Origin: Chloroflexus sp.
GTDB taxonomy: Bacteria; Chloroflexota; Anaerolineae; Anaerolineales; Villigracilaceae
Length of the DNA: 64,000 nt
Direction: 5' to 3'
Assembly: GCA_020723995.1 (NCBI GenBank)
Contig: DYHT01000005.1
Span: 3,211 to 67,210 of the forward strand
Position 1 is the stretch's first letter, and each line of letters starts with the position of its first letter. Positions 2,975 through 55,440 of this stretch are shown here, piece by piece. The notes under the pieces were generated by a model. The model had not been told where the DNA came from, did not search any database, and was given only the letters and a program-made list of their open reading frames with translations. The position numbers and the translations under genes are program-made.

Positions 2975-4456
2975 TTATTTCGATTGGGAGGCTGACGCAA
3001 CGCCCTGCCGCTGGCGCGTCTGCAAGATAAAATCCTTGATCAATTGGGCCGCGGCCGGCTGCGTGCCTCCCATGATCAAGTGACCCGGCGCCCAGTAATC
3101 GCCCGAGGGATTTTCCTTCTTGAAGCGCGGAAACTCGGCAAAGATCTTTTCTGAAGTTTGCTGGCGGATGGTACGCATCATGTAACTCGGTGAGGCGACT
3201 GGTGGCACATTTAATAGCCATTGCAGGTAATCCGGGCGCACCGCGATGTATTCCAACCGCCAGCCGAAAGCAACGCAGATTTGCGGCATCCACTCGGCGA
3301 GGCGGTCAGCCAGGTCTCCGGTCAGGTGGTGCTGGGCAAAGCGCGGGATGAGCAGGCACACATAGGTCAGGTTATAGACCGATGGCGAGACCGGCTCTAA
3401 AAAGATTCTTCTCCCCTCCTCGGCAGGCACATGCGGCCGAGTTTCACCTTGCGCATCGGGAGAGCTTTCCTCCTCTTCGACAATTTTATCCCGCTGGCCG
3501 GCCTGGGTATCGGTCTTTCGCTCCATAATGGTCGCGCCTGCAGCGACCATAACCGTCTCCAAGATCTTCGCCTGGGCTGGTTTGGAATACACCCCGGGCT
3601 GGATGGCAATGGGCATAGAAGCCTCTTGGCTGGTTTCTGGTGAGAGGATGTTCTTATCTCCTGCATCCAGTCCGGTTGGCTGGGAAACCGAGAGCGAACG
3701 GACCAATTGGGTGGCTTGCGTCCGGATGGTGTTGAAAGGCGTCTCGGCATCGAAGGTGAGCGCCAAGACCAGGCCGGCGGCCAGCCGCGTGGCATACACC
3801 ATGTGCTCGGCGTTGGTCGAGCCTAGACGGACAAAGCGTACCAGGTCGCTTTCTTCAGTCTGGTCCCAGTAACGCGCCACTAATTGCGCCAGTTCGTGAG
3901 CTGCGCTCTGCGGCAACTGGCCGGCATAAGCCCACAGCTTGTTGTTGCGATTGATCAAGGCGGCTTGGGCCGAGGATTCAAGCGTCAGACGGGTGAGATG
4001 CTGGGCCGCGCGGTTGACGTTGGCAAGCCAGGACATTTCAGGTTCATCTGTGGCTGCGGCGGCAGGAACGTTTTGGGGTGTGCGCTGTGTGGGGGGTCCG
4101 GCTTGAAGTGTTGCAAACATCTTGTCCATTATATCCATTAAATCGGGTAAATAGAAAGGCTTGGCAAGGTGAGCATCAGGCTCCAATTCATTCAGCGCCG
4201 CATCCGGGCCATCCCCTGAAAGGAAGATAAAGCGCATCCCGGCATTGGCATTCAGCAAGGCGCGGCCGGCCTTGAGCGCCTCTGGAATATCGAGGTCCAG
4301 GAACGTCAGCGGGCATTTCTCCTGGCGGGCGTAAATGACCCCATCATCAACCTGGCTCAGGACGCGGACACTGAAGCGGCCTGTCTCTTCCAGGCTGCGG
4401 GCGATCAGTTCTCCAAAGGCAGCATCGCGGGTAAGCACCAAAAGTGGCAGCGCCAT
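2975..4456 (-). CDS. Receiver-like / roadblock(LC7)-like / degenerate IS200-type (Y1) transposase-like domain protein
   Basis: 493-aa ORF lying 48 bp upstream of polA on the same strand. The N-terminus shows a CheY-like pattern (LLVLT..FLDLD..KPF) and the centre an MglB/roadblock-like pattern. The C-terminal ~120 aa aligns by eye to IS200/IS605 TnpA, with PDYLQWLL in place of the HUH motif PDHVHLL and KDFILQ in place of the catalytic Tyr helix. Confidence 0.6.
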   Translation of the reverse strand: MALPLLVLTRDAAFGELIARSLEETGRFSVRVLSQVDDGVIYARQEKCPLTFLDLDIPEALKAGRALLNANAGMRFIFLSGDGPDAALNELEPDAHLAKPFYLPDLMDIMDKMFATLQAGPPTQRTPQNVPAAAATDEPEMSWLANVNRAAQHLTRLTLESSAQAALINRNNKLWAYAGQLPQSAAHELAQLVARYWDQTEESDLVRFVRLGSTNAEHMVYATRLAAGLVLALTFDAETPFNTIRTQATQLVRSLSVSQPTGLDAGDKNILSPETSQEASMPIAIQPGVYSKPAQAKILETVMVAAGATIMERKTDTQAGQRDKIVEEEESSPDAQGETRPHVPAEEGRRIFLEPVSPSVYNLTYVCLLIPRFAQHHLTGDLADRLAEWMPQICVAFGWRLEYIAVRPDYLQWLLNVPPVASPSYMMRTIRQQTSEKIFAEFPRFKKENPSGDYWAPGHLIMGGTQPAAAQLIKDFILQTRQRQGVASASQSK

Positions 4457-4568: not shown

Positions 4569-4719
4569 GTAACTATTCAGCCAACGCTGAGTACACCGAT
4601 TTGTCACTCTGAGCGGAGCGAAGAGTCCCCTCCAGCGTGGGGGATGCTTCGTCGCACACCGTCCTGGCGGTCGGTGCCAGGGAAAAACGCTCCTCAGCAT
4701 GACAGGCCTGAATAGTTAC
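4569..4719 (+). mobile_element. 151-bp MITE, copy 1 (intergenic)
   Basis: Terminal inverted repeats are GTAACTATTCAGCC...GGCCTGAATAGTTAC. It is flanked by an exact 8-bp direct repeat GATTCAGT (4561-4568 and 4720-4727). It differs by 1 nt from copy 2. Confidence 0.85.
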
Positions 4720-4738
4720 GATTCAGTTAACTTTACAA

Positions 4739-8937: not shown

Positions 8938-10872
<1,935 letters not shown>

Positions 10873-10877
10873 GAAAT

Positions 10878-11450
10878 ATGAACTTCCAATCCATAATCCT
10901 CAAACTGCAGGAATTCTGGGCCGAGAAAGGTTGCCTCATCTGGCAACCCTATTACACGCAGATCGGCGCAGGGACAATGAATCCCGCCACCTTCCTGCGC
11001 GTGCTCGGACCCGAACCGTGGAACGTCGCCTATGTCGAGCCTTCCGTCCGCCCGGACGATGGGCGCTATGGCGAGAACCCCAACCGTTTCCAGCAGCACA
11101 CCCAATTCCAGGTCATCCTGAAGCCCGACCCGGGCAACCCAGTGGAACTCTATTTGCAGTCGCTGGAGGCCATCGGCATCAATCCCCGCGAACATGACAT
11201 CCGCCTGGTGGAGGACAACTGGCAGCAACCGGCCATCTCGGCCTGGGGCCTGGGCTGGGAAATCTGGCTGGACGGGCAGGAGATCACCCAGTTCACCTAT
11301 TTTCAGCAGGTCGGCGGGCAGAGCCTCGACCCGGTGGCGGTTGAGATCACCTACGGGCTGGAGCGCATCCTGATCGCGCTCAATAACGCCGCCGCCATCT
11401 GGGACGAACCCTGGGGCGCGGGCGTGACCTACGGCGAAGTCCGCCGCCGC
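10878..11450 (+). pseudogene. Truncated 5' copy of glycyl-tRNA synthetase alpha (glyQ), codons 1-191
   Basis: It starts 5 nt after the gyrB stop and is identical to the full glyQS gene over 10932-11450. After 11450 the ORF runs into sequence antisense to another gene fragment. Confidence 0.9.
10932..11450 (+). repeat. 519-bp direct repeat, left copy
   Basis: Base-by-base comparison with 14548-15066 (offset 3616) shows a single mismatch, at 10970/14586. Confidence 0.95.
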
Positions 11451-11601
11451 AGAGCTTGGGGCGCGGGTGATGTGCCTTTTCCAGGATCAGCGTGCGCGCG
11501 GCCATCTCCGGCGCGATCTGCGCCAGGTGCAGCGCGGTGGATATCCCGGCCGGGCCTGCGCCGACGATGATGACAGCGTGCTTTCGCATGTCTGATCGCA
11601 T
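11451..11601 (-). pseudogene. N-terminal fragment of an FAD-dependent oxidoreductase (geranylgeranyl-reductase-like)
   Basis: It encodes [17 protein letters not shown]...KLCGGGL and then ends abruptly at the junction with the glyQ fragment. Confidence 0.7.
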
Positions 11602-11689
11602 GGGCTGAATTTACCACAGATAAACGCAGGTGGACACAAGTATTTTGGGAGTTTGGCCTGTGGAATGATGGCACAGACACAGTATTTCC

Positions 11690-11718
11690 TTGACAAAAGG
11701 TAATTTATGGTGCATACT
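11690..11718 (+). promoter_or_regulatory. Putative sigma-70 promoter, TTGACA-17 nt-CATACT, with the -10 ending 6 nt before the ATG
   Basis: Hexamers and spacing read directly. It has the same architecture as the promoter at 21439-21467. Confidence 0.5.
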
Positions 11719-11724
11719 TTCCTT

Positions 11725-13020
11725 ATGACAAGGAAAGATTTGTTAAAAACCATCATTACTGATAGCCAGAGACGGGCTTTTCCAGAGATATGGGAGCGAA
11801 CGCTAAAGATCCCTGCCGAGAGTGGAAAGATCATTACGTTGACAGGAGTGCGCCGCAGTGGGAAGACGTATCACCTTTTTAGCCTCATGCGCCAACTCAA
11901 GGCCAGTGGGATACCGCCGGAAAGGATCTTGTACATCAATTTCGAGGATGAGCGCTTGCAGATATCGAGCGGCGACCTGGATTTGATCTTGCAGGCCTAC
12001 CAGGAGTTATATCCCCAACTCGAATTGTCGGATTGTTATTTTTTCTTCGACGAGATCCAGGAGGCGGAAGGATGGGAGAAATTCATTGCCCGACTCTATT
12101 CAACCATCAGCCAGCGCATTTTTATAACAGGCTCCAACTCCAGGCTGCTTTCACAAGAGATTGCAACCGCCCTGCGAGGCAGGACGATCCCTTTCGAAGT
12201 GTATCCTTTGTCTTTCTCTGAATACGTGCGGGTTCTTTCTCCCGGGTTGAATCCCTACAGTAGCGCGGACAAAGCCAGACTCGCGCATCTTTTCGAACGC
12301 TTTATGGTAGGGGGCGGCTTCCCCGAACTCGTCACACAAAAAGAAGAGTTGAAGGAAAAAATCCTGCAAGAATATTTCAACGTAATGGTTTTCAGAGATA
12401 TGGTGGAACGTTATCGCATTTCCCAGACGCCGCTCCTCAAATATTCCTGCAAAAGGGTGGTCGGCGCGAGCGCGGGAGAATTTAGCGTGAACAAGATTTA
12501 CAACGAACTGAAATCACAAGGGTATCAGGTGGGGAAGGACACCCTCTACGCCTATCAGGGATATATCGAGGCGATCTACTTGAGCCGATTTGTCCCGAAG
12601 TATTCTTTTTCAGTGGTGAAAACGGAAGGATCGCAAAAGAAAACCTACGTGATAGATACGGGATTGGGGTCTGCGCTGGATTACAAATTCAGCCAGGATC
12701 GGGGGAGACTGCTCGAAACGGTTGTTGCACTGGAGTTGATCAAACAAGGCCGGCAGATTGCTTATCAGCAAAATGGTGGTGAGTGCGATTTTGTGACGAT
12801 CGAAAAGGGCCGCGTGACAGAGGCGATCCAGGTATCTGCGGATTTTGCCGGCGCTCGAACCAAAGAGCGCGAAACTCGTGAGCTGATCCAGGCTTGTAAA
12901 AAAATCGGCTTGCGAACCGGAACCATCCTCAGCCTGGATTACGACGAACAATTCGAGATGGACGGAATACAAGTATCCATTCTTCCTGCATGGAGGTATT
13001 TCTTTCGTTCAGGAGAATGA
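11725..13020 (+). CDS. AAA_14 / DUF4143 family ATPase (paralogue a)
   Basis: It has a Walker A motif (GVRRSGKT) and a C-terminal DUF4143-like block (YVIDTGL..ECDFV..AIQVS). The nuclease-type ExK position reads QVS here. Confidence 0.85.
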   Translation: MTRKDLLKTIITDSQRRAFPEIWERTLKIPAESGKIITLTGVRRSGKTYHLFSLMRQLKASGIPPERILYINFEDERLQISSGDLDLILQAYQELYPQLELSDCYFFFDEIQEAEGWEKFIARLYSTISQRIFITGSNSRLLSQEIATALRGRTIPFEVYPLSFSEYVRVLSPGLNPYSSADKARLAHLFERFMVGGGFPELVTQKEELKEKILQEYFNVMVFRDMVERYRISQTPLLKYSCKRVVGASAGEFSVNKIYNELKSQGYQVGKDTLYAYQGYIEAIYLSRFVPKYSFSVVKTEGSQKKTYVIDTGLGSALDYKFSQDRGRLLETVVALELIKQGRQIAYQQNGGECDFVTIEKGRVTEAIQVSADFAGARTKERETRELIQACKKIGLRTGTILSLDYDEQFEMDGIQVSILPAWRYFFRSGE

Positions 13021-13090
13021 AGAGTAGTAACGGCATGGGAACTGTAAATCCGCAAGGCAGCGCGAAAGTGTATAATTTGACAGGAGATAC

Positions 13091-13310
13091 ATGAGATGGC
13101 ATCGAATATCCCGCCTCGCTGGAGTTGCACAAGATTTACCGCGTGCTACCTGATAAGGACGCGCAAGCCGACGGCGACATGTGAATCATTGACGAGAGCG
13201 GAGAAGATTATCTTTTCCCCGCTGATTATTTCATCCCTATTGAGTTGCCGCACACGATTGTCCGAGCATTGAACAAATCGTTTGTGCGGACACCTGCCGC
13301 TGCCGGATAA
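13091..13310 (+). pseudogene. Small conserved-hypothetical gene, decayed
   Basis: It has its own TATAAT (13069-13074), an AGGAGA SD and an ATG at 13091. The conserved-looking frame (LELHKIYRVLPDKDA..IIDESGEDYLFPADYF) is offset by 1 nt from that ATG and contains an in-frame TGA at 13182-13184. Confidence 0.4.
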
Positions 13311-13367
13311 TCAAAACGGCGCGTCGCAATAGGCGCGTCGTTTTTCATCCTTCACAATTCATCCTTT

Positions 13368-14258
13368 ATGCGCCCCCTCAAAGTCTTCCCTTCGACTTCG
13401 CTCAGGGCAAGCCTCTGCCACGCCCACAGTGACGCGGCCGCTGTGCGGACTCTCTACAGCCGCCTCATAAAAGACGGCGTGGATGCCTGGTTGGATAAAT
13501 CACGCCGCCGTGTTGAGGACATGATTTCAGAAGGAGGTAATTACCATGTGTCATACTTTCCGCCCGCCCTTCCTGGTCGTTGTATTTTCTCTGTTGATGG
13601 CTGGCTTTGTTCTCACAGGGTGTACACCCGCACAACCAACACCCACCCCCACACGGTGACCCTGGATGCCTTCTGGATTGACCAGACTGAAGCGACCAAT
13701 GCCATGTATGCTCTGTGCGTACAGGCTGGGGTTTGTCAGCCTCCCCAAAACAGCAGTTCTTCCACGCGTCCCAGTTATTACGGCAATCCCGAGTTCGACT
13801 ATTACCCACTTGTCTTTGTGGACTGGAACATGGCGAATGCCTACTGCACATGGGCAGGGCGCAGGCTGCCCACCGAAGCCGAGTGGGAAAAAGCGGCACG
13901 GGGCACGGATGGGCGCACTTATCCCTGGGGGGAGGGGATTGACTGCAACCACGCGAATTATCTCGGTTGTGAGGGCGATACAACCGCCGTTGGCAGTTAC
14001 GAGAGCGGTAAGAGTTTTTACAGCGCGTATGATATGGCCGGCAATATTTGGGAATGGGTGAGCAGCTTGTACAAGCCCTACCCTTACAGTGCAATCGACG
14101 GGCGCGAAGATTTGAATGCAACAGGTTCGCGAGTGCTGCGTAGCGGCACGTGGTTCTTTGGCGATTTCTTCGTCCGTTCTGCCATCCGCTACTATGCCGA
14201 TCCTACATTCGCCGACGTCAACCTCGATTTTCGTTGCTCCCGTGGCACATTCCCGTAG
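13368..14258 (+). pseudogene. FGE-sulfatase (SUMF1-type) domain lipoprotein, frame-disrupted, preceded by a TIR-like N-terminal remnant
   Basis: AAGGAGGT plus ATG at 13546 opens a lipoprotein signal peptide ([11 protein letters not shown]) that stops at TGA 13657-13659, just after a C-run. The FGE domain ([36 protein letters not shown]) continues in a different frame. Residues 13368-13500 resemble a TIR start ([31 protein letters not shown]). Confidence 0.7.
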
Positions 14259-14432
14259 GGGGGCTTACTTCTCTAGTCCTGAACGTAACTTTTGCGAAAT
14301 CAGTACGAGAATCGTAGAAAGTGGCAAAAAATGGTTTGGGCGCGGCGGTTTGCCAGAGGCCTGAAAAAAGAGTTGTTTGCCAGCCAACCAGACCTCCGTG
14401 TTCTCGCAGAACTCGGTGGTCTGCTTTAACGG

Positions 14433-14438
14433 TATAAT
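14433..14438 (+). promoter_or_regulatory. Possible -10 box (GGTATAAT) for glyQS
   Basis: TATAAT lies 50 nt upstream of the ATG at 14488. No good -35 is present. Confidence 0.35.
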
Positions 14439-14487
14439 CCCCTCGCTTCACCAAAGACTATTCTCTAATCTCTACTCTCGAATCCCT

Positions 14488-17400
14488 ATGCCCCAAACCT
14501 TCCAAGCCCTCATCCTCAAACTCCAGAACTTCTGGGCCTCCCACGGCTGCCTCATCTGGCAACCCTATTACACGCAGATCGGCGCGGGGACAATGAATCC
14601 CGCCACCTTCCTGCGCGTGCTCGGACCCGAACCGTGGAACGTCGCCTATGTCGAGCCTTCCGTCCGCCCGGACGATGGGCGCTATGGCGAGAACCCCAAC
14701 CGTTTCCAGCAGCACACCCAATTCCAGGTCATCCTGAAGCCCGACCCGGGCAACCCAGTGGAACTCTATTTGCAGTCGCTGGAGGCCATCGGCATCAATC
14801 CCCGCGAACATGACATCCGCCTGGTGGAGGACAACTGGCAGCAACCGGCCATCTCGGCCTGGGGCCTGGGCTGGGAAATCTGGCTGGACGGGCAGGAGAT
14901 CACCCAGTTCACCTATTTTCAGCAGGTCGGCGGGCAGAGCCTCGACCCGGTGGCGGTTGAGATCACCTACGGGCTGGAGCGCATCCTGATCGCGCTCAAT
15001 AACGCCGCCGCCATCTGGGACGAACCCTGGGGCGCGGGCGTGACCTACGGCGAAGTCCGCCGCCGCGATGAGTTCGAGCACAGCAAGTATTACTTCGAGA
15101 CTGCCGACGTGGCGCGCCTGCGCCAGATGTACGATCTGTTCCGAGCAGAGGCAGAAGCCTGCCTGGCGCAGGGGCTGGTCGTCCCGGCGCACGATTACGT
15201 GCTCAAGTGCTCGCACACCTTCAATACCCTCGACACACGCGGCGCCATCGGCGTGACGGAGAGACAGGCGTTTTTTGGGCAGATGCGCGAGCTGGCCAGA
15301 CGGGTGGCGGAAACGTATCTAGAGCAGAGGAAGGCGTTGGAGTATCCTCTTCTAAAAGATGAAAGCGGAAAGATGAAAGATGAAATAAAGCCATCCATCC
15401 TTTCATCTTTCATCTCTCATCCTTCATCCTTTCTCCTTGAGATCGGCACAGAAGAATTGCCTGCAAATGATGTGGGCGCGGCCCACGCGCAGCTCGCAAC
15501 CCGTATCCCGTTACTCCTCGACGAACTTCACCTCACCCACGGCGACATCCGCGTCTTCTCGACCCCGCGCCGGCTGACCGTTTCGATCGACTCTTTGTCT
15601 CCCCGACAGCCCGACCGCGAGGCGCTCGTCAAAGGGCCGCCCGCGGATAAGGCCATCGTAGGTCGGACTGGCAGTCCGACCTACACCCCCGCCGCGCAAG
15701 GATTTGCGAAGAAGAACGGCGTTAGCGTCGAGTCTCTCGAAGTCCGCGAACAGGACGGCGGTAAATACGTCTTTGCTGTGGTCAAGCAGGCGGGACGTCC
15801 CACTCCCGAAGTGCTGGCGGATGTTTTAGCGAGCGTGTTGGTGGGCATCAAATTCGAGAAGTCCATGCGCTGGAACGACTCAGGCGTTGCCTTCTCGCGT
15901 CCGATCCGCTGGCTGGTTGCGCTGCTCGGCAACCAAGTGATTCCATTTGAATACGCGGGCGTCGTCTCAAGCAATGTGACGCGCGGCTTGCGTCCGTATG
16001 ATTCGCCTGAAATCAAAATCCCCTCCGCCGACAAATACTTCGACGTGATTCGCGAAGCAGGAATCGTTTTGGATTACGAAGAGCGCAAAGCCTCCATCGT
16101 GGAACAAGTCAAACAAGCCGCGGCGCTGGTCGGCGGCGAAGCCATCATTGACGAAGGCCTGCTCGCCGAAGTCACCAACCTGGTCGAAATGCCCACCGCC
16201 GTGATGGGAGGATTCGATCCCGCATTCCTGCAACTGTCGCGTGATGTGCTGATTTCGGTGATGAAGAAGCACCAAAGGTATTTCCCTGTCGAACGTCAAA
16301 CAGCCCGCCCTGAGCCTGTCGAAGGGTCAAAGGTCGCGGATTCGACGTCCGACGTTCGACCTTCGACATTGTTGCCGCATTTCATCGCCATCCGCAACGG
16401 CGACTCGGAGAATCTAGACCTCGTCCGGCAAGGCAACGAACACGTCCTGCGCGCCCGCTTTGCGGATGCTGATTTCTTCGTCCGCGCTGACCTGAAACAC
16501 AAGCTGGAGGACTTCCGCCCGCGGCTGGGCACGCTGATTTTCCATAAGAAACTCGGCTCGATGCTGGATAAGTCTGAGCGCATCGAAAAACTGACCGGCG
16601 CGCTGGTCCCGCTACTGGGCCTGGAAGTGGATGAGGCGACTTTTGCCCGGCGTGCCGCCCACCTGGCAAAGGCCGATCTGGTCACCAAGATGGTAGTCGA
16701 GATGACCTCGCTGCAAGGCGTCATCGGCCGCGAGTACGCGCTGCGCGCCGGCGAAAGTCAGGCCGTTGCCGATGCGATTGGCGAGCAATACCAGCCTGTC
16801 CCCAAGACCAAAGCCGGCCTGGCCGTTGCCCTGGCCGACCGCCTTGACTCACTCGTTGGTCTCTTCGCGGCGGGACTGGCTCCCACCGGCGCGAAAGACC
16901 CATTTGGCCTGCGGCGCGCCGCGAACGGCGTGGTTCAACCGTTGATCGAACATAATATTTCTTTCGATTTGCGCGCCGCGGTCGAAAAGGCCGCCAGCTT
17001 GCAACCCATCGAAATCAGCGCGCAGGTGCAGGCGCAGGTGCTGGATTTCATGGCGGGCCGCTTGTCTGTTCTGCTCAAAGACTCGGGTTACAAATACGAT
17101 GTCGTGGACGCGGTCCTCGCCGCACAAGCGGATAACCCGGCCGGTTCGGCGCGCACCGTCAAGCAATTGCAGGCATGGACTGAGCGCAACGACTGGCATG
17201 AGATCTTGCCCGCCTATGCCCGCTGCGTGCGCATCATTCGCTCCGCGCAAGTAAACAGTGATCAGTTACCGGTGATCAGTGAAAAACTACTTGTCGAAGC
17301 GGAAGAAAAGAATTTACACGGCGCGATCCAAAAGAATGTCAAGACTCCTCCCGCATCTGTAGATGAGTGCCTGGAAATTGTAGTCAGACTCATTCCAGCC

Positions 17401-17535
17401 ATCAACGTCTTCTTCGATAAGGTGCTTGTGATGGCTGAAGACGAAATGATCCGGCAAAACCGTTTGGCGCTGGTCGGACAAATTGCCAATTTGTCCAACG
17501 GCATCGCCGATTTGAGCAAACTGGAAGGATTCTAG
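14488..17535 (+). CDS. glyQS: Glycine--tRNA ligase, fused alpha and beta subunits
   Basis: The N-terminus [28 protein letters not shown] is GlyQ-like and [11 protein letters not shown] onward is GlyS-like. The start is placed at the Met that aligns with the truncated copy at 10878. Confidence 0.93.
14548..15066 (+). repeat. 519-bp direct repeat, right copy
   Basis: See 10932-11450. Confidence 0.95.
15358..15434 (+). repeat. Heptamer inverted-block element (GATGAAA)n...(CTTTCAT)n, in frame inside glyQS
   Basis: The heptamers read GATGAAA GCGGAAA GATGAAA GATGAAA, then a loop, then CTTTCAT CTTTCAT CTCTCAT CCTTCAT. They encode [24 protein letters not shown] between the GlyQ and GlyS parts. Confidence 0.85.
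15658..15684 (+). repeat. 27-nt perfect palindrome GTAGGTCGGACT-GGC-AGTCCGACCTAC inside glyS coding sequence
   Basis: 12-bp arms read directly. It encodes VGRTGSPTY. It has the same length and the same GTAGG/CCTAC ends as the intergenic palindrome at 6331-6357. Confidence 0.85.
16286..16378 (+). repeat. Heptamer inverted-block element (..GTCGAA.. / ..TTCGAC..) in frame inside glyS
   Basis: TGTCGAA-type heptamers are followed by CGTCCGA CGTTCGA CCTTCGA. It encodes [25 protein letters not shown] between the conserved HQRYFPV and LLPHFI segments. Confidence 0.75.
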
Positions 17536-22724: not shown

Positions 22725-23606
22725 TTGAATCACATTTCCGAGTGGAATATGAGTCTACCTTTTTTTCGCACACCCAAGCCCATTGAAAGCCAATTCAGCC
22801 CCCAGGCCGAGATTGTTTTGTATCAGGGCGATGTCAAAGATTTCCTCGCCGAGATACCGAATGATATGGTTAGCTTGATTATTACCTCGCCTCCCTATAA
22901 CCTCGGAAAGGATTATGAAAATCGAGTTTCAATAGTAACATATCTCAAAGCGCAAACTGAAATTATCGCTGAACTTTTTCGTGTGCTGAAAACAGAAGGA
23001 AGCATTTGCTGGCAGGTAGGGAATTTTATAGAAAATGGCGAAGTTTATCCGTTGGACATTTTGTACTACGATATTTTCAAAAAACTCGGCTTGCATTTGC
23101 GAAATAGAATAATTTGGCGTTTCGGACACGGTTTACATGCCTCGAAGCGATTTTCAGGACGTTATGAAACAATCCTGTGGTTTACCAAGAGCGACAAATA
23201 CATATTCAATCTCGATGATATTCGTGTGCCTTCCAAGTATCCTGGTAAGCGTCACTTCAAAGGCGCAAAAAAAGGACAGCTTTCTGGAAATCCATTGGGT
23301 AAAAACCCCTCCGACGTTTGGGAAGTTGTTACGCGGGATTGGGAGGAAGAACTTTGGGATATTCCAAACGTCAAAGCCAATCATCCCGAAAAAACCGGCC
23401 ACCCTTGCCAGTTTCCTATTGAACTTGTCGAGCGTTGCGTTCTAGCGCTGACCAACGAAGATGACTGGGTTTTCGATCCGTTTGCGGGGGTTGGATCCGC
23501 CTTGATTGCGGCAGTTATGCACAACAGGCGCGCGATGGGAAGTGATAGTGATAAGGAAGAAGGTAACTATTCAGCCAGCGCTGAGTACACCGATTTGTCA
23601 CTCTGA
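22725..23606 (+). CDS. Site-specific DNA methyltransferase (beta-class N4/N6, SPPY motif), 3' end interrupted by a MITE
   Basis: Motif IV TSPPYN precedes motif I DPFAGVGS. From codon ~280 the ORF reads into the MITE at 23563. The region is AT-richer. No restriction endonuclease gene was recognised next to it. Confidence 0.8.
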
Positions 23607-23713
23607 GCGGAGCGAAGAGTCCCCTCCAGCGTGGGGGATGCTTCGTCGCACACCGTCCTGGCGGTCGGTGCCAGGGAAAAACGCTCCTCAGCATGACAGG
23701 CCTGAATAGTTAC
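23563..23713 (+). mobile_element. 151-bp MITE, copy 2 (inside an ORF)
   Basis: It matches the family consensus. It is flanked by GAAGAA(G) and GAAGAA(T). Confidence 0.85.
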
Positions 23714-23854
23714 GAAGAATGGGTGAAAGAAATTCGTGATCAGTGTTTAAAAGCAAGAGTGCCTTTCTTCTTCAAGCAATGGGGCGGGATACGCAAGAAA
23801 AAAGCAGGCCGAATCCTGGAAGGGCAAACCTGGGATGAGATTCCAATCCAGTGA
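23714..23854 (+). pseudogene. Displaced 3' end of the interrupted ORF, with a tail resembling the phage Gp37/Gp68 (DUF5131) C-terminus
   Basis: It encodes [46 protein letters not shown]. It is in frame with the methyltransferase ORF once the MITE and one flanking repeat are removed. Confidence 0.55.
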
Positions 23855-27287: not shown

Positions 27288-27438
27288 GTAACTATTCAGC
27301 CAGCGCTGAGTACACCGATTTGTCACTCTGAGCAGAGCGAAGAGTCCCCTCCAGCGTGGGGGATGCTTCGTCGCACACCGTCCTGGCGGTCGGTGCCAGG
27401 GAAAAACGCTCCTCAGCATGACAGGCCTGAATAGTTAC
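27288..27438 (+). mobile_element. 151-bp MITE, copy 3
   Basis: It has one substitution relative to copy 2. There is no flanking direct repeat. It abuts the nuoE stop on the left and a truncated HEPN ORF on the right. Confidence 0.85.
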
Positions 27439-40333: not shown

Positions 40334-40544
40334 CAGACCCTAAAGGTCTCTTTGCCTGACTCGCGCCCTGTTTGCAGGCCTCTCTTGCCCGTTGTGGCGA
40401 TGATTCACGCACAAGACCTTTAGGGTCTCGTGCAAAGTCAGACCCTAAAGGTCTCTTTGCCTGACTCGCGCCCTGTTTGCAGGCCTCTCTTGCCCGTTGT
40501 GGCGATGATTCACGCACAAGACCTTTAGGGTCTCGTGCAAAGTC
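40334..40544 (+). repeat. Two tandem copies of a 105-bp unit, each bounded by inverted repeats AGACCCTAAAGGTCT / AGACCTTTAGGGTCT
   Basis: Unit 2 starts at 40439 and reads identical to unit 1. A partial copy (AGACCCTAAAGGTTTCCTTTGC) lies near 48937. Confidence 0.9.
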
Positions 40545-55172: not shown

Positions 55173-55283
55173 AACCACAAAGTCCACGAAGTTGCACAAA
55201 GGAAGACCTAGAAAACCTTCGTGTTCCCTTCGGCTTCGATCAGGGCAAGCCTTCGTGCCCTTTGTGGTAAAAATTCTTGCACA
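55173..55283 (+). repeat. Inverted blocks of 8-10-nt repeats (CCACAAAG / CCACGAAG ... CCTTCGTG / CCTTTGTGG)
   Basis: Read directly. It is the same CACGAAG family as the elements at 24819 and 29147. Confidence 0.7.
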
Positions 55284-55289
55284 AAAAAC

Positions 55290-55440
55290 GTAACTATTCA
55301 GCCAGCGCTGAGTACACCGGTTTGTCACTCTGAGCGGAGCGAAGAGTCCCCTCCAGCGTGGGGGATGCTTCGTCGCACACCGTCCTGGCGGTCGGTGCCA
55401 GGGAAAAACGCTCCTCAGCATGACAGGCCTGAATAGTTAC
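55290..55440 (+). mobile_element. 151-bp MITE, copy 4
   Basis: It has one substitution relative to copy 2. There is no flanking direct repeat. A truncated gene abuts its right end. Confidence 0.85.

Follow-up and report, generated by a model that had tools for sequence, protein, structure and literature searches.

The stretch of DNA analysed here (the window) comprises 64,000 nucleotides (nt) of contig DYHT01000005.1 (assembly GCA_020723995.1) from an uncultured Anaerolineales bacterium, and it carries, between gyrB and dnaG, two copies of the 5' part of glyQS, the gene for a fused alpha-beta glycyl-tRNA synthetase. One copy is truncated and lies directly behind gyrB, the other forms the start of a full-length glyQS, and a 3.1-kb block of mostly decayed genes lies between them. 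A sequence-only reading of the window had described this arrangement and had attributed it to a single crossover between the resident gene and a circular DNA that carried a related glyQ 5' segment. The comparisons with relatives and with independently assembled reads reported here suggest that the arrangement is probably the product of one real event, which combined homologous exchange within glyQ with an illegitimate joint at a short microhomology.

The duplicated 5' part of glyQS

The features that make up the duplication, with the two genes that border it, are the following.

8959 to 10872, plus strand: gyrB (637 amino acids (aa), TAG stop at 10870-10872), the left, conserved border of the variable region
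10873 to 10877, plus strand: left joint and spacer GAAAT, which together with the TAG reads AGGAAAT-ATG and resembles a Shine-Dalgarno site
10878 to 11570, plus strand: truncated glyQ open reading frame (ORF), 230 aa, composed of 191 glyQ codons (10878-11450) and 39 out-of-frame codons
10878 to 10931, plus strand: A-type 5' end, 18 codons, assigned to another glyQ lineage than the 5' end of the full gene
10932 to 11450, plus strand: repeat copy 1, codons 19-191 of the truncated copy
11438 to 11450: right-joint microhomology AGTCCGCCGCCGC, glyQ codons 189-191 (sense) and oxidoreductase codons 51-55 (antisense)
14259 to 14487, plus strand: leader and probable promoter region of the full glyQS, with a perfect TATAAT at 14433-14438, 50 nt ahead of the ATG
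14488 to 14547, plus strand: B-type 5' end, 20 codons
14548 to 15066, plus strand: repeat copy 2, codons 21-193 of the full glyQS
14488 to 17535, plus strand: full-length glyQS, fused alpha-beta glycyl-tRNA synthetase, 1015 aa
17546 to 19675, plus strand: dnaG (primase), the conserved right-hand neighbour, which follows glyQS in most loci

The core of the duplication is a direct repeat of 519 nt (10932-11450 and 14548-15066, at a spacing of 3616 nt) in which the two copies agree at 518 of 519 positions, as the sequence-only reading had noted; the sole mismatch (A at 10970, G at 14586) is synonymous. A repeat of this length with a single mismatch cannot have arisen by chance. Over its last 60 nt, no other relative's allele is identical at more than 54 positions. 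By contrast, the first 18 to 20 codons of the two copies are clearly diverged, again as described earlier: the parts ahead of the repeats (10881-10931 and 14497-14547) match at 38 of 51 nt and differ in length by 6 nt, or two codons, and the 54-60 nt that precede each repeat copy are only about 75% alike.

The truncated ORF begins with an ATG 5 nt past the gyrB stop codon and has an AGGA 6 nt ahead of that ATG, an arrangement that would fit a start which was once functional. It matches positions 1-187 of the 278 positions of PF02091 (E 3e-96), and homology then stops sharply at 11450/11451, so that both the sequence and the profile match bear out the earlier description of a glyQ start next to gyrB, 191 codons and an abrupt end. 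The 39-codon tail is antisense read-through of an oxidoreductase remnant. The truncated copy retains 191 of about 290 alpha-domain codons, and because the last third of the alpha catalytic domain is absent the ORF is probably non-functional. A collection of 15 billion proteins held no second copy of the chimeric 230-aa protein, and exact-protein and cluster look-ups of this ORF and of the DUF4143 protein encoded between the repeats returned no second case of the structure.

The full-length glyQS, by comparison, is covered in one reading frame by PF02091 (1-278 of 278, E 5e-129), PF02092 (1-536 of 536, E 7e-188) and DALR_1, and on these profile matches it is presumably the functional copy; its start is corrected here from 14485 to the ATG at 14488. 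The last ~65 nt of its leader are 70-78% conserved ahead of glyQS in about 10 relatives. A consensus promoter scan called no promoter at the putative TATAAT and gave no -35 match, and a search of 10500-15500 found no tRNA gene and no credible Rfam family, a T-box leader included, all of the weak Rfam matches being far below gathering scores.

An imperfect hairpin with 32-nt arms that are 84% complementary (AAAGATGAAAG.../...CTTTCATCTTTCATC) lies in frame within the alpha-beta linker of glyQS at 15354-15432, and a similar motif occurs at 13338-13367, upstream of the TIR stub described below. Because contigs that hold this hairpin reach very high depth (245-1184) in other metagenomes, it appears to be a dispersed REP-like repeat within an essential gene.

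Affinities of the two 5' ends and of the repeat

Relatives' loci are labelled L001-L097. The closest glyQS relatives are L001 (81% aa) and L002 (79% aa), and the closest gyrB relatives are L044 and L084 (96% aa, about 90% nt). The affinity of the repeat was followed by sliding-window and segment identities against 11-90 relatives, N-terminal motif statistics were drawn from 131 distinct glyQ N-termini, and the length of the N-terminus was compared with that in 80 relatives.

When the two 5' ends were compared with glyQ of relatives, as the sequence-only reading had proposed, they fell into different lineages. The B-type end is nearest to L002 (46 of 51 nt identical), L009 (45/51) and L044 (45/51). 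The A-type end has its best match in L060, a distant lineage, with which it agrees at 44 of 51 nt and 17 of 17 aa, and it shares 35-38 of 51 nt with L002, L009 and L044. Because the A-type end is thus a perfectly conserved motif of another glyQ lineage, it is best read as an intact, conserved functional motif and not as a decayed duplicate of the B-type end; these alignments indicate that DNA of two glyQ lineages is present in the window.

The motif statistics also bear on which of the two 5' ends belongs with the repeat. N-termini of the ASHG type continue with C-L-I-T/A-Q in all eight distinct sequences and never with CLIWQ, and those of the AE(K/R)G type continue with C-(L/V)-(I/L)-W-Q in 23 of 28. 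The repeat starts with CLIWQ, and the 9-mer AEKGCLIWQ is also found in L058. Since ASHG followed by CLIWQ is absent from all eight ASHG sequences, and AEKG followed by CLIWQ occurs naturally in L058, the A-type end and the repeat would form a natural continuity and the boundary between the B-type end and the repeat would be the recombinant one; the evidence for this is moderate, a limit set by W being the commonest state overall at the variable position of CLI-W/T/A-Q. The affinity pattern of the repeat continues unchanged into the alpha-domain sequence past 15066.

In three of the related loci (L018:9051-9818, L049:8989-9771 and L058:8969-9750), arrays of ~132-nt tandem repeats lie directly upstream of glyQS, and these loci have A-like (..A[EG]KG) N-termini.

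The joints on either side of the truncated copy

The right joint, at 11450/11451, connects glyQ to the remnant of an oxidoreductase gene (ox) on the minus strand. Microhomology was assessed by aligning the ox N-termini of L044, L002, L035 and L005 with the window and with both repeat ends. The glyQ sense strand reads GAAGTCCGCCGCCGC|GATGAG at this point, and ox on the same strand reads (AGT)CCGCCGCCGC|AGAGCTTGGG, the relatives' codons being CGGG(L). A microhomology of 10 nt (11441-11450) is certain, and three more are added, for 13 nt in all, if the ancestral ox had the GGACTG of L002 and L005. On this alignment, 11450/11451 is an illegitimate joint of the typical microhomology-mediated kind, made at a run of (CCG)3, with ox cut at codon 55. 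Because identity between the repeat copies reaches the last homologous base, and other alleles are identical at no more than 54 of the final 60 nt, it is most probable that the repeat was copied and the joint formed in a single event, a recent one in view of the one difference in 519 nt.

At the left joint, homology to L044 and L084 stops right at the gyrB stop codon. These two loci have 22 nt in common after that stop codon (TACTTCCCAAGAAGGAGGGG), which are missing from the window. Within gyrB, identity to L044 and L084 is flat at 87-96% with no fall toward the 3' end, and the identity profile against these two relatives contains no foreign tract at the gyrB 3' end that would mark a homologous anchor. 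Relative to L044, the window is thus without the post-gyrB spacer and without ox codons 56 to the end, and has the 573-nt glyQ piece in their place. A likeness of 8-10 nt between the post-gyrB spacer of L044 and L084 (ACTTCCCAAGAA) and glyQ codons 2-5 was dropped as too short to be told from chance.

Read support and linkage

Read-level evidence came from Logan k=31 contigs and unitigs of run X1, a subsurface metagenome, which were built independently of the deposited assembly; a 31-mer look-up identified X1 as the only public run that holds the window genome. Four wetland and sediment runs (X2-X5) hold 6-14% of the window 31-mers, and they yielded only short conserved gyrB or glyQ pieces of other organisms and no second case of the joints.

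Each passage into and out of the repeat is represented in X1. A contig of 6606 nt (depth 11.1) runs from gyrB through the A-type 5' end into the repeat, one of 2271 nt (depth 11.0), which begins 30 nt before 11451, runs from the repeat through the truncated ox into the DUF4143 gene, one of 909 nt (depth 8.6) holds the FGE gene and the B-type 5' end, and one of 2292 nt (depth 9.6), which begins 30 nt before 15067, runs from the repeat into the rest of glyQS. A repeat-only unitig (11281-11450) has a depth of 17.2, as against 8.6-11.1 in the single-copy flanks, and gyrB and the body of glyQS are at single depth, not doubled. The k=31 graph of X1 shows no competing branch into the truncated ox. 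Because the partners at 11450/11451 share at most 13 nt, far below k=31, a de Bruijn assembler could not have invented this joint, and 31-mers that span it must be present in the reads; the junction, for which the sequence-only reading had asked for read evidence, is therefore real in an independent assembly.

In the X1 graph a single 3.1-kb loop leaves the repeat node and returns to it, and the same edges would serve a linear chromosome or a chromosome accompanied by a 3,616-bp circle. Given equal depths and the absence of a replication gene from the block, the linear integrated form is much more likely than a free circle, and we infer that both repeats lie on one chromosome. At position 14586 the X1 contigs show the A variant only, and the contig that carries the B-type 5' end breaks off at 14570; these contigs do not confirm the deposited G, probably because a minor bubble branch was removed.

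The block between the repeats

The gene content between the repeats is as the sequence-only reading had listed it.

11437 to 11601, minus strand: remnant of a FAD-dependent oxidoreductase gene, geranylgeranyl-reductase-like, the first 55 of ~386-424 codons
11707 to 13020, plus strand: intact AAA_14/DUF4143 ATPase gene (Pfam E 3e-35 and 9e-15)
about 13095 to 13310, plus strand: small conserved gene, now a pseudogene, interrupted by an in-frame TGA (13182-13184) and with its N-terminus disrupted
13368 to 14258, plus strand: decayed TIR/FGE-sulfatase gene, whose N-terminal 45 aa are TIR-like and whose FGE domain occupies 13626-14258

Every gene in the block is decayed except the DUF4143 gene, and the only Pfam matches are to the FAD-binding remnant, AAA_14/DUF4143 and FGE-sulfatase. 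The ox remnant gives weak matches to Pfam FAD/NAD-binding families over its Rossmann N-terminus, of which only NAD_binding_8 passes the curated cut-off, and it shares 81% of its amino acids and 87.6% of its nucleotides with the intact ox of L044. The 3' part of ox is found nowhere else in the 64-kb window, and a search of X1 with the closest relative's gene as query found nothing at least 80% like the missing 1.1 kb. In PADLOC, the DUF4143 ATPase matches profile PDLC04787 of the candidate defence family PDC-S01 (E 2e-105), with positions 22-405 of the 412 covered. The small gene is intact in L007, L016 and L006, as judged from frame translations, with DNA matches of 74-83%. The FGE domain matches PF03781 (E 2.5e-39 over aa 87-290), and the lipoprotein signal of the FGE gene (13547-13630) lies in a different frame from this domain; in relatives, TIR and FGE parts lie 1-1.5 kb apart, directly upstream of glyQS. 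ORF, Pfam and PADLOC scans found no integrase, recombinase or replication gene in the block.

The truncated ox, the DUF4143 gene and the rest of the block are present once in the 64 kb, and the glyQ part alone is duplicated; a simple tandem segmental duplication was rejected on this ground. We also considered a DUF4143 gene that travels with glyQ fragments, and found this not to be so in the best-sampled homologues, that of L096 being in a syntenic chromosomal position and that of L097 in an unrelated context. The window lacks recO, cdd and glmU, which lie upstream of ox in L002 and L096.

Several short repeats were seen in the block or elsewhere in the window. At 13384-13414, a short dispersed repeat CTTCCCTTCGACTTCGCTCAGGGCAAGCCTC breaks the TIR-like stub (KVF[PSTSLRAS]LCHA); similar copies occur at 55221-55252 of the window and in L001 and L084, and many unrelated X1 and X22 contigs match this piece alone. 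A repeat of ~153 nt is present in four copies that are at least 98% identical (4569-4721, 23563-23715, 27288-27438 and 55290-55440). One copy adjoins a 493-aa ORF (2975-4456) whose syntenic counterpart in L085 and L087 has a Y1 transposase domain (PF01797), and the repeat may be a small non-autonomous element of such a Y1 transposase. A perfect 106-nt tandem duplication lies at 40334-40544.

The gyrB-glyQS neighbourhood in relatives

The genes of the block recur next to glyQS in relatives. An ox gene on the minus strand lies upstream of glyQS in at least 16 related loci, either ~200 nt away or across an island, with dnaG after glyQS, and the small gene and the TIR...FGE gene are frequent upstream neighbours of glyQS. 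In L044 the order is up317 (a membrane protein gene), gyrB, 90 nt, ox (386 aa, minus strand), a toxin-antitoxin island, glyQS and dnaG; L096 has recO, ox, further genes, a DUF4143 gene (81% aa to that of the window), AbiEii, glyQS and dnaG; and L084 has gyrB, a toxin-antitoxin island and glyQS, without ox. Because the order ox-island-glyQS-dnaG is conserved in at least 16 loci and no integrase is present, the 3.1-kb block is, on this synteny, the ordinary chromosomal neighbourhood of glyQS in Anaerolineales and not plasmid-like. A metagenome scan with the upstream membrane protein returned three short loci only, all of which end within or before gyrB.

The stretch after gyrB varies among close relatives in ways that go beyond the window. 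L044 (4328-13075) and L084 (3021-11913) are near-conspecific metagenome-assembled genomes in which gyrB is 97.1% identical at the nucleotide level and up317 94%. Identity is only 73.8% in glyQS (70% in its beta part) and 85.6% in dnaG, and the two genomes carry unrelated islands in the gyrB-glyQS gap. These identities indicate that an essential aminoacyl-tRNA synthetase (aaRS) allele has been swapped within a species-level group. L088, L089 and L090 encode an identical GyrB protein (P0136) and carry different genes after gyrB depending on the sample, as do L091-L094; a restriction-modification-like or BREX-like island is among them, and the 3' flank of gyrB is a site where islands vary by strain. 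Contents in this gyrB-94% group include a methylase/Csa1/BrxCD island, other genes, a methylase/HATPase/GIY-YIG island, and a GreA-like gene with Phd/PIN. In L088, beyond a 4.5-kb defence-like island after gyrB (N6/N4 methylase, Csa1, BrxC/BrxD-like), a 34-codon gyrB relic (16461-16574; codons 561-598, 82% aa, 83% nt) is fused into another ORF; by its position, this relic mirrors the one that glyQ has left in the window. Taken together, these loci mark the stretch after gyrB as a hot spot for defence and toxin-antitoxin islands and for glyQS allele exchange in close relatives. Another close GyrB relative, P0148 (1072 aa), carries an intein domain (PF14890).

Interpretation

On the evidence of the repeat, the joints and the read graph, we consider it probable that the locus records one real event, a homologous exchange in glyQ together with a microhomology joint. 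As to how this happened, we tentatively prefer an insertion-duplication. Two versions of the locus would have been joined, one with an A-type glyQ 5' end directly behind gyrB and one with ox, an island and a glyQS with a B-type 5' end. The homologous exchange would have fallen within glyQ at about codons 18-22, and the illegitimate join, at the 10-13 nt of microhomology on (CCG)3, would have linked glyQ codon 191 to ox codon 55. We infer both the direction of the event and the nature of the donor, which would have been a chromosomal fragment of a conspecific or close strain that carried the truncated ox, the DUF4143 gene, the decayed genes and the B-type glyQ 5' end; closed or captured at the microhomology, this fragment would have recombined into a resident gyrB-glyQS with an A-type 5' end. 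The product would be a truncated resident 5' copy, translationally coupled to gyrB, followed by the 3.1-kb block and by a hybrid full-length glyQS that uses the incoming leader and first 20 codons. The truncated copy is expected to be an inactive by-product. In principle the arrangement is unstable through its 519-nt direct repeats: RecA-type recombination between them would delete the block, including the DUF4143 gene, and leave gyrB, the A-type end and glyQS, and the earlier description of such an exchange as restoring gyrB-glyQS and releasing a circle (of 3,616 bp) has the topology right.

The single crossover with a circular DNA that the sequence-only reading had proposed thus survives in its topology. 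Its foreign or plasmid-like block does not, as the block is syntenic chromosomal DNA without an integrase, and a plain crossover with a circle whose glyQ was diverged would have made the two repeats differ. The repeat copies show no donor/recipient chimera pattern and are identical apart from one single-nucleotide difference; identity up to the joint implies that the donor was already identical there, and hence conspecific, or that a single gene gave rise to both copies in that one event. The further claim that glyQS now depends on imported sequence would hold under insertion-duplication and would not hold if the block is native.

Several observations weigh against this interpretation. Among ~95 related loci in which gyrB/glyQS adjacency was counted, gyrB directly abuts glyQS in none, and in L044 and L084 the two genes are 3.8-3.9 kb apart. 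The order gyrB-ox-island-glyQS is already present in L044, so that the block may have been inherited and not regained. No donor haplotype was seen in X1. The repeat is not assignable to the A-type or the B-type lineage, all relatives being 83-88% identical there. Because 31-mers cannot bridge 519 nt, linkage on one molecule rests on the deposited assembly and on the equal depths. Finally, the A-type N-terminus (MNFQ) falls two residues short of that in any of the 80 relatives, so that the left joint may also be illegitimate, and old.

Inherited synteny is the starting point of the chief alternative, in which the block and the full gene are native and an older, displaced A-type glyQS relic lay behind gyrB. 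A break in the relic would have been repaired by invasion of the resident glyQS 3 kb downstream, codons 21-193 would have been copied, and the repair would have been closed by annealing at (CCG)3 in ox, with deletion of the rest of the relic and of ox codons 56 to the end and with nothing imported. We regard this as only slightly less probable than insertion-duplication. It agrees with the orders gyrB-ox-island-glyQS-dnaG of L044 and ox-DUF4143-...-glyQS of L096, and with the ox remnant (87.6%) and the B-type end (90%) being about as close to L044 as gyrB is (~90%), as expected for vertical descent, whereas the A-type end is at 71%. Identity that runs exactly to the joint suits copying ended by a template switch, relics of core genes occur at the hot spot (L088), where glyQS alleles are swapped between near-conspecifics, and no donor is required, in keeping with none being seen in X1. 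On the other side, it requires an earlier displacement event that was not observed, it makes ASHG followed by CLIWQ native, a combination present in no ASHG-type relative, and long templated copying closed by microhomology is, to our knowledge, poorly documented in bacteria, which counts against it. Both this course and insertion-duplication need an unobserved earlier A-type glyQS directly behind gyrB, and because each needs such a once-functional gene, the start behind gyrB fits both; the ASHG|CLIWQ argument favours insertion-duplication.

The remaining explanations are less probable. That the loop is not integrated, the chromosome reading gyrB-A-type end-repeat-glyQS and the 3,616-bp unit existing as a free circle, a tandem array or a mixture through which the assembler walked once, is unlikely: the k=31 self-loop has the same edges under both solutions and 519 nt may exceed the span of short-read pairs, but equal depth, within noise, of the four unique edges (11.1, 11.0, 8.6 and 9.6) would be a coincidence for a circle, the unit has neither a replication nor an integrase gene, and both of its ends are ordinary chromosomal neighbours of glyQS in relatives. 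Somewhat less probable still is a classical homology-facilitated illegitimate recombination (HFIR), in which an incoming truncated ox-island-glyQS displaced most of an old gyrB-linked allele, followed by a separate gene conversion that homogenised two ~85%-similar repeats of 0.57 kb. The two 5' ends of different lineages speak for it, and HFIR characteristically leaves an insertion accompanied by a deletion, with microhomology at the joint (PMC3240628). A conversion tract, however, needs homology on both sides, yet identity reaches the last homologous base, 11450, where independent alleles differ at 6 or more of the last 60 nt, and the full gene shows no affinity discontinuity at 15066/15067. 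Gene conversion between sequences that are ~85% identical is inefficient, which further counts against this course. That the assembly fused two strains or species and nothing was really rearranged, the case that would have undone the sequence-only reading, is very improbable. The source metagenome does hold several Anaerolineales, and conserved glyQ 31-mers are common to other organisms (depth spikes at 11264-11310); but the 10-13 nt shared at the joint are far fewer than k=31, the 2271-nt contig that holds the joint has normal depth and no alternative branches, gyrB and the rest of glyQS are at single depth, and no intact ox is in the sample, so that a mixture of two strains is not supported. 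Least probable by our estimate is a site-specific integrative island that targets the glyQS 5' end and brings a replacement (SXT/prfC- or dusA-like): the outcome is similar, with a new 5' end and leader supplied by inserted DNA and an old 5' piece left behind, but the block has no integrase or recombinase, the repeat measures 519 nt and not tens of bp, one end falls within another gene, at a microhomology joint, and the block is syntenic chromosomal DNA. We give only a very small joint probability to readings that are not listed here.

A broader view, which we consider improbable, is that the gyrB-glyQS gap of these Anaerolineales is an integrase-free exchange site. Defence and toxin-antitoxin islands would then move as chromosomal fragments together with a few hundred bases of a flanking essential gene, either the glyQS 5' end or, as in L088, the gyrB 3' end; they would enter by host homologous recombination with microhomology closure and leave as circles via the long repeats. 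If this were true, the window would show an element caught integrated, one that re-wires the promoter and N-terminus of the synthetase at each move.

If confirmed on single molecules, the structure would be a clean natural case of recombination between strains that remodels the start of an essential gene without killing the cell. It would unite at one locus an exchange by homology, a joint at a microhomology, a dead copy left behind gyrB and coupled to it as a by-product, and a 3.6-kb loop that can be reversed. It also marks the stretch after gyrB as a hot spot for the turnover of islands and aaRS alleles in a poorly studied, uncultured phylum. It also carries a warning for annotation, in that the 230-aa ORF behind gyrB, annotated as "glycine--tRNA ligase subunit alpha", is only part of a gene and that the neighbouring oxidoreductase, small-gene and TIR/FGE calls are pseudogenes.

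Comparison with known systems

SXT/R391 elements in prfC and dusA-specific islands integrate at the 5' end of their target gene, which then uses a 5' end brought by the element, and they do so with a tyrosine integrase and short attachment (att) sites. The window resembles them in that the gene works on with a new leader and new N-terminal codons, and differs in having neither an integrase nor short att sites.

A closer likeness is to Campbell-type insertion-duplication. In Escherichia coli, degraded and recircularised DNA that enters by a single crossover produces duplications of 109-950 bp, and does so more often than HFIR proper (PMC3240628). There as here, direct repeats of part of the target (109-950 bp in that work, 519-573 nt in the window) flank the insert, and a closure joint results from end degradation and illegitimate joining (PMC3240628); one gene copy is truncated and one complete, and recombination between the repeats can reverse the insertion. 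The window differs in that a piece of a relative's chromosome and not a plasmid would be involved, in a natural uncultured organism and with an essential target that stays intact, and in that the copies are identical in spite of 25% divergence between the 5' ends next to them, an outcome that a simple crossover with a diverged donor would not lead one to expect. HFIR itself has been described in naturally transformable bacteria, with a typical microhomology of 3-10 bp (PMC3240628). A homologous anchor combined with an illegitimate joint (10-13 nt here) and the loss of the neighbouring 3' part of ox are shared with it (PMC3240628); however, HFIR normally replaces without duplicating the anchor, and in the window part of the anchor gene is duplicated.

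At the level of the neighbourhood, the effector-immunity arrays of the Vibrio cholerae type VI secretion system (T6SS) and Rhs loci likewise have a conserved anchor with displaced modules and truncated relics adjoining it, and related strains differ in the modules present at the same site (PMC5361080); the gene concerned here is a housekeeping aaRS and not a toxin, and there is one relic only. The replacement of aaRS homeoalleles via conserved flanks (PMC3191353) is comparable to L044 and L084, with gyrB at 97% and glyQS at 74%, and to the two glyQ lineages in the window. The published homeoalleles are deeply divergent enzyme types (PMC3191353), whereas those considered here are of the same type and ~75-85% identical, and the window would represent an incomplete or abortive exchange in place of a clean swap. 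By analogy, the pattern at the hot spot matches the published replacement of alleles and modules via conserved flanks, with occasional illegitimate events that leave orphans (PMC3191353, PMC5361080). The window is thus a new example of a known recombination product and not a new kind of system.

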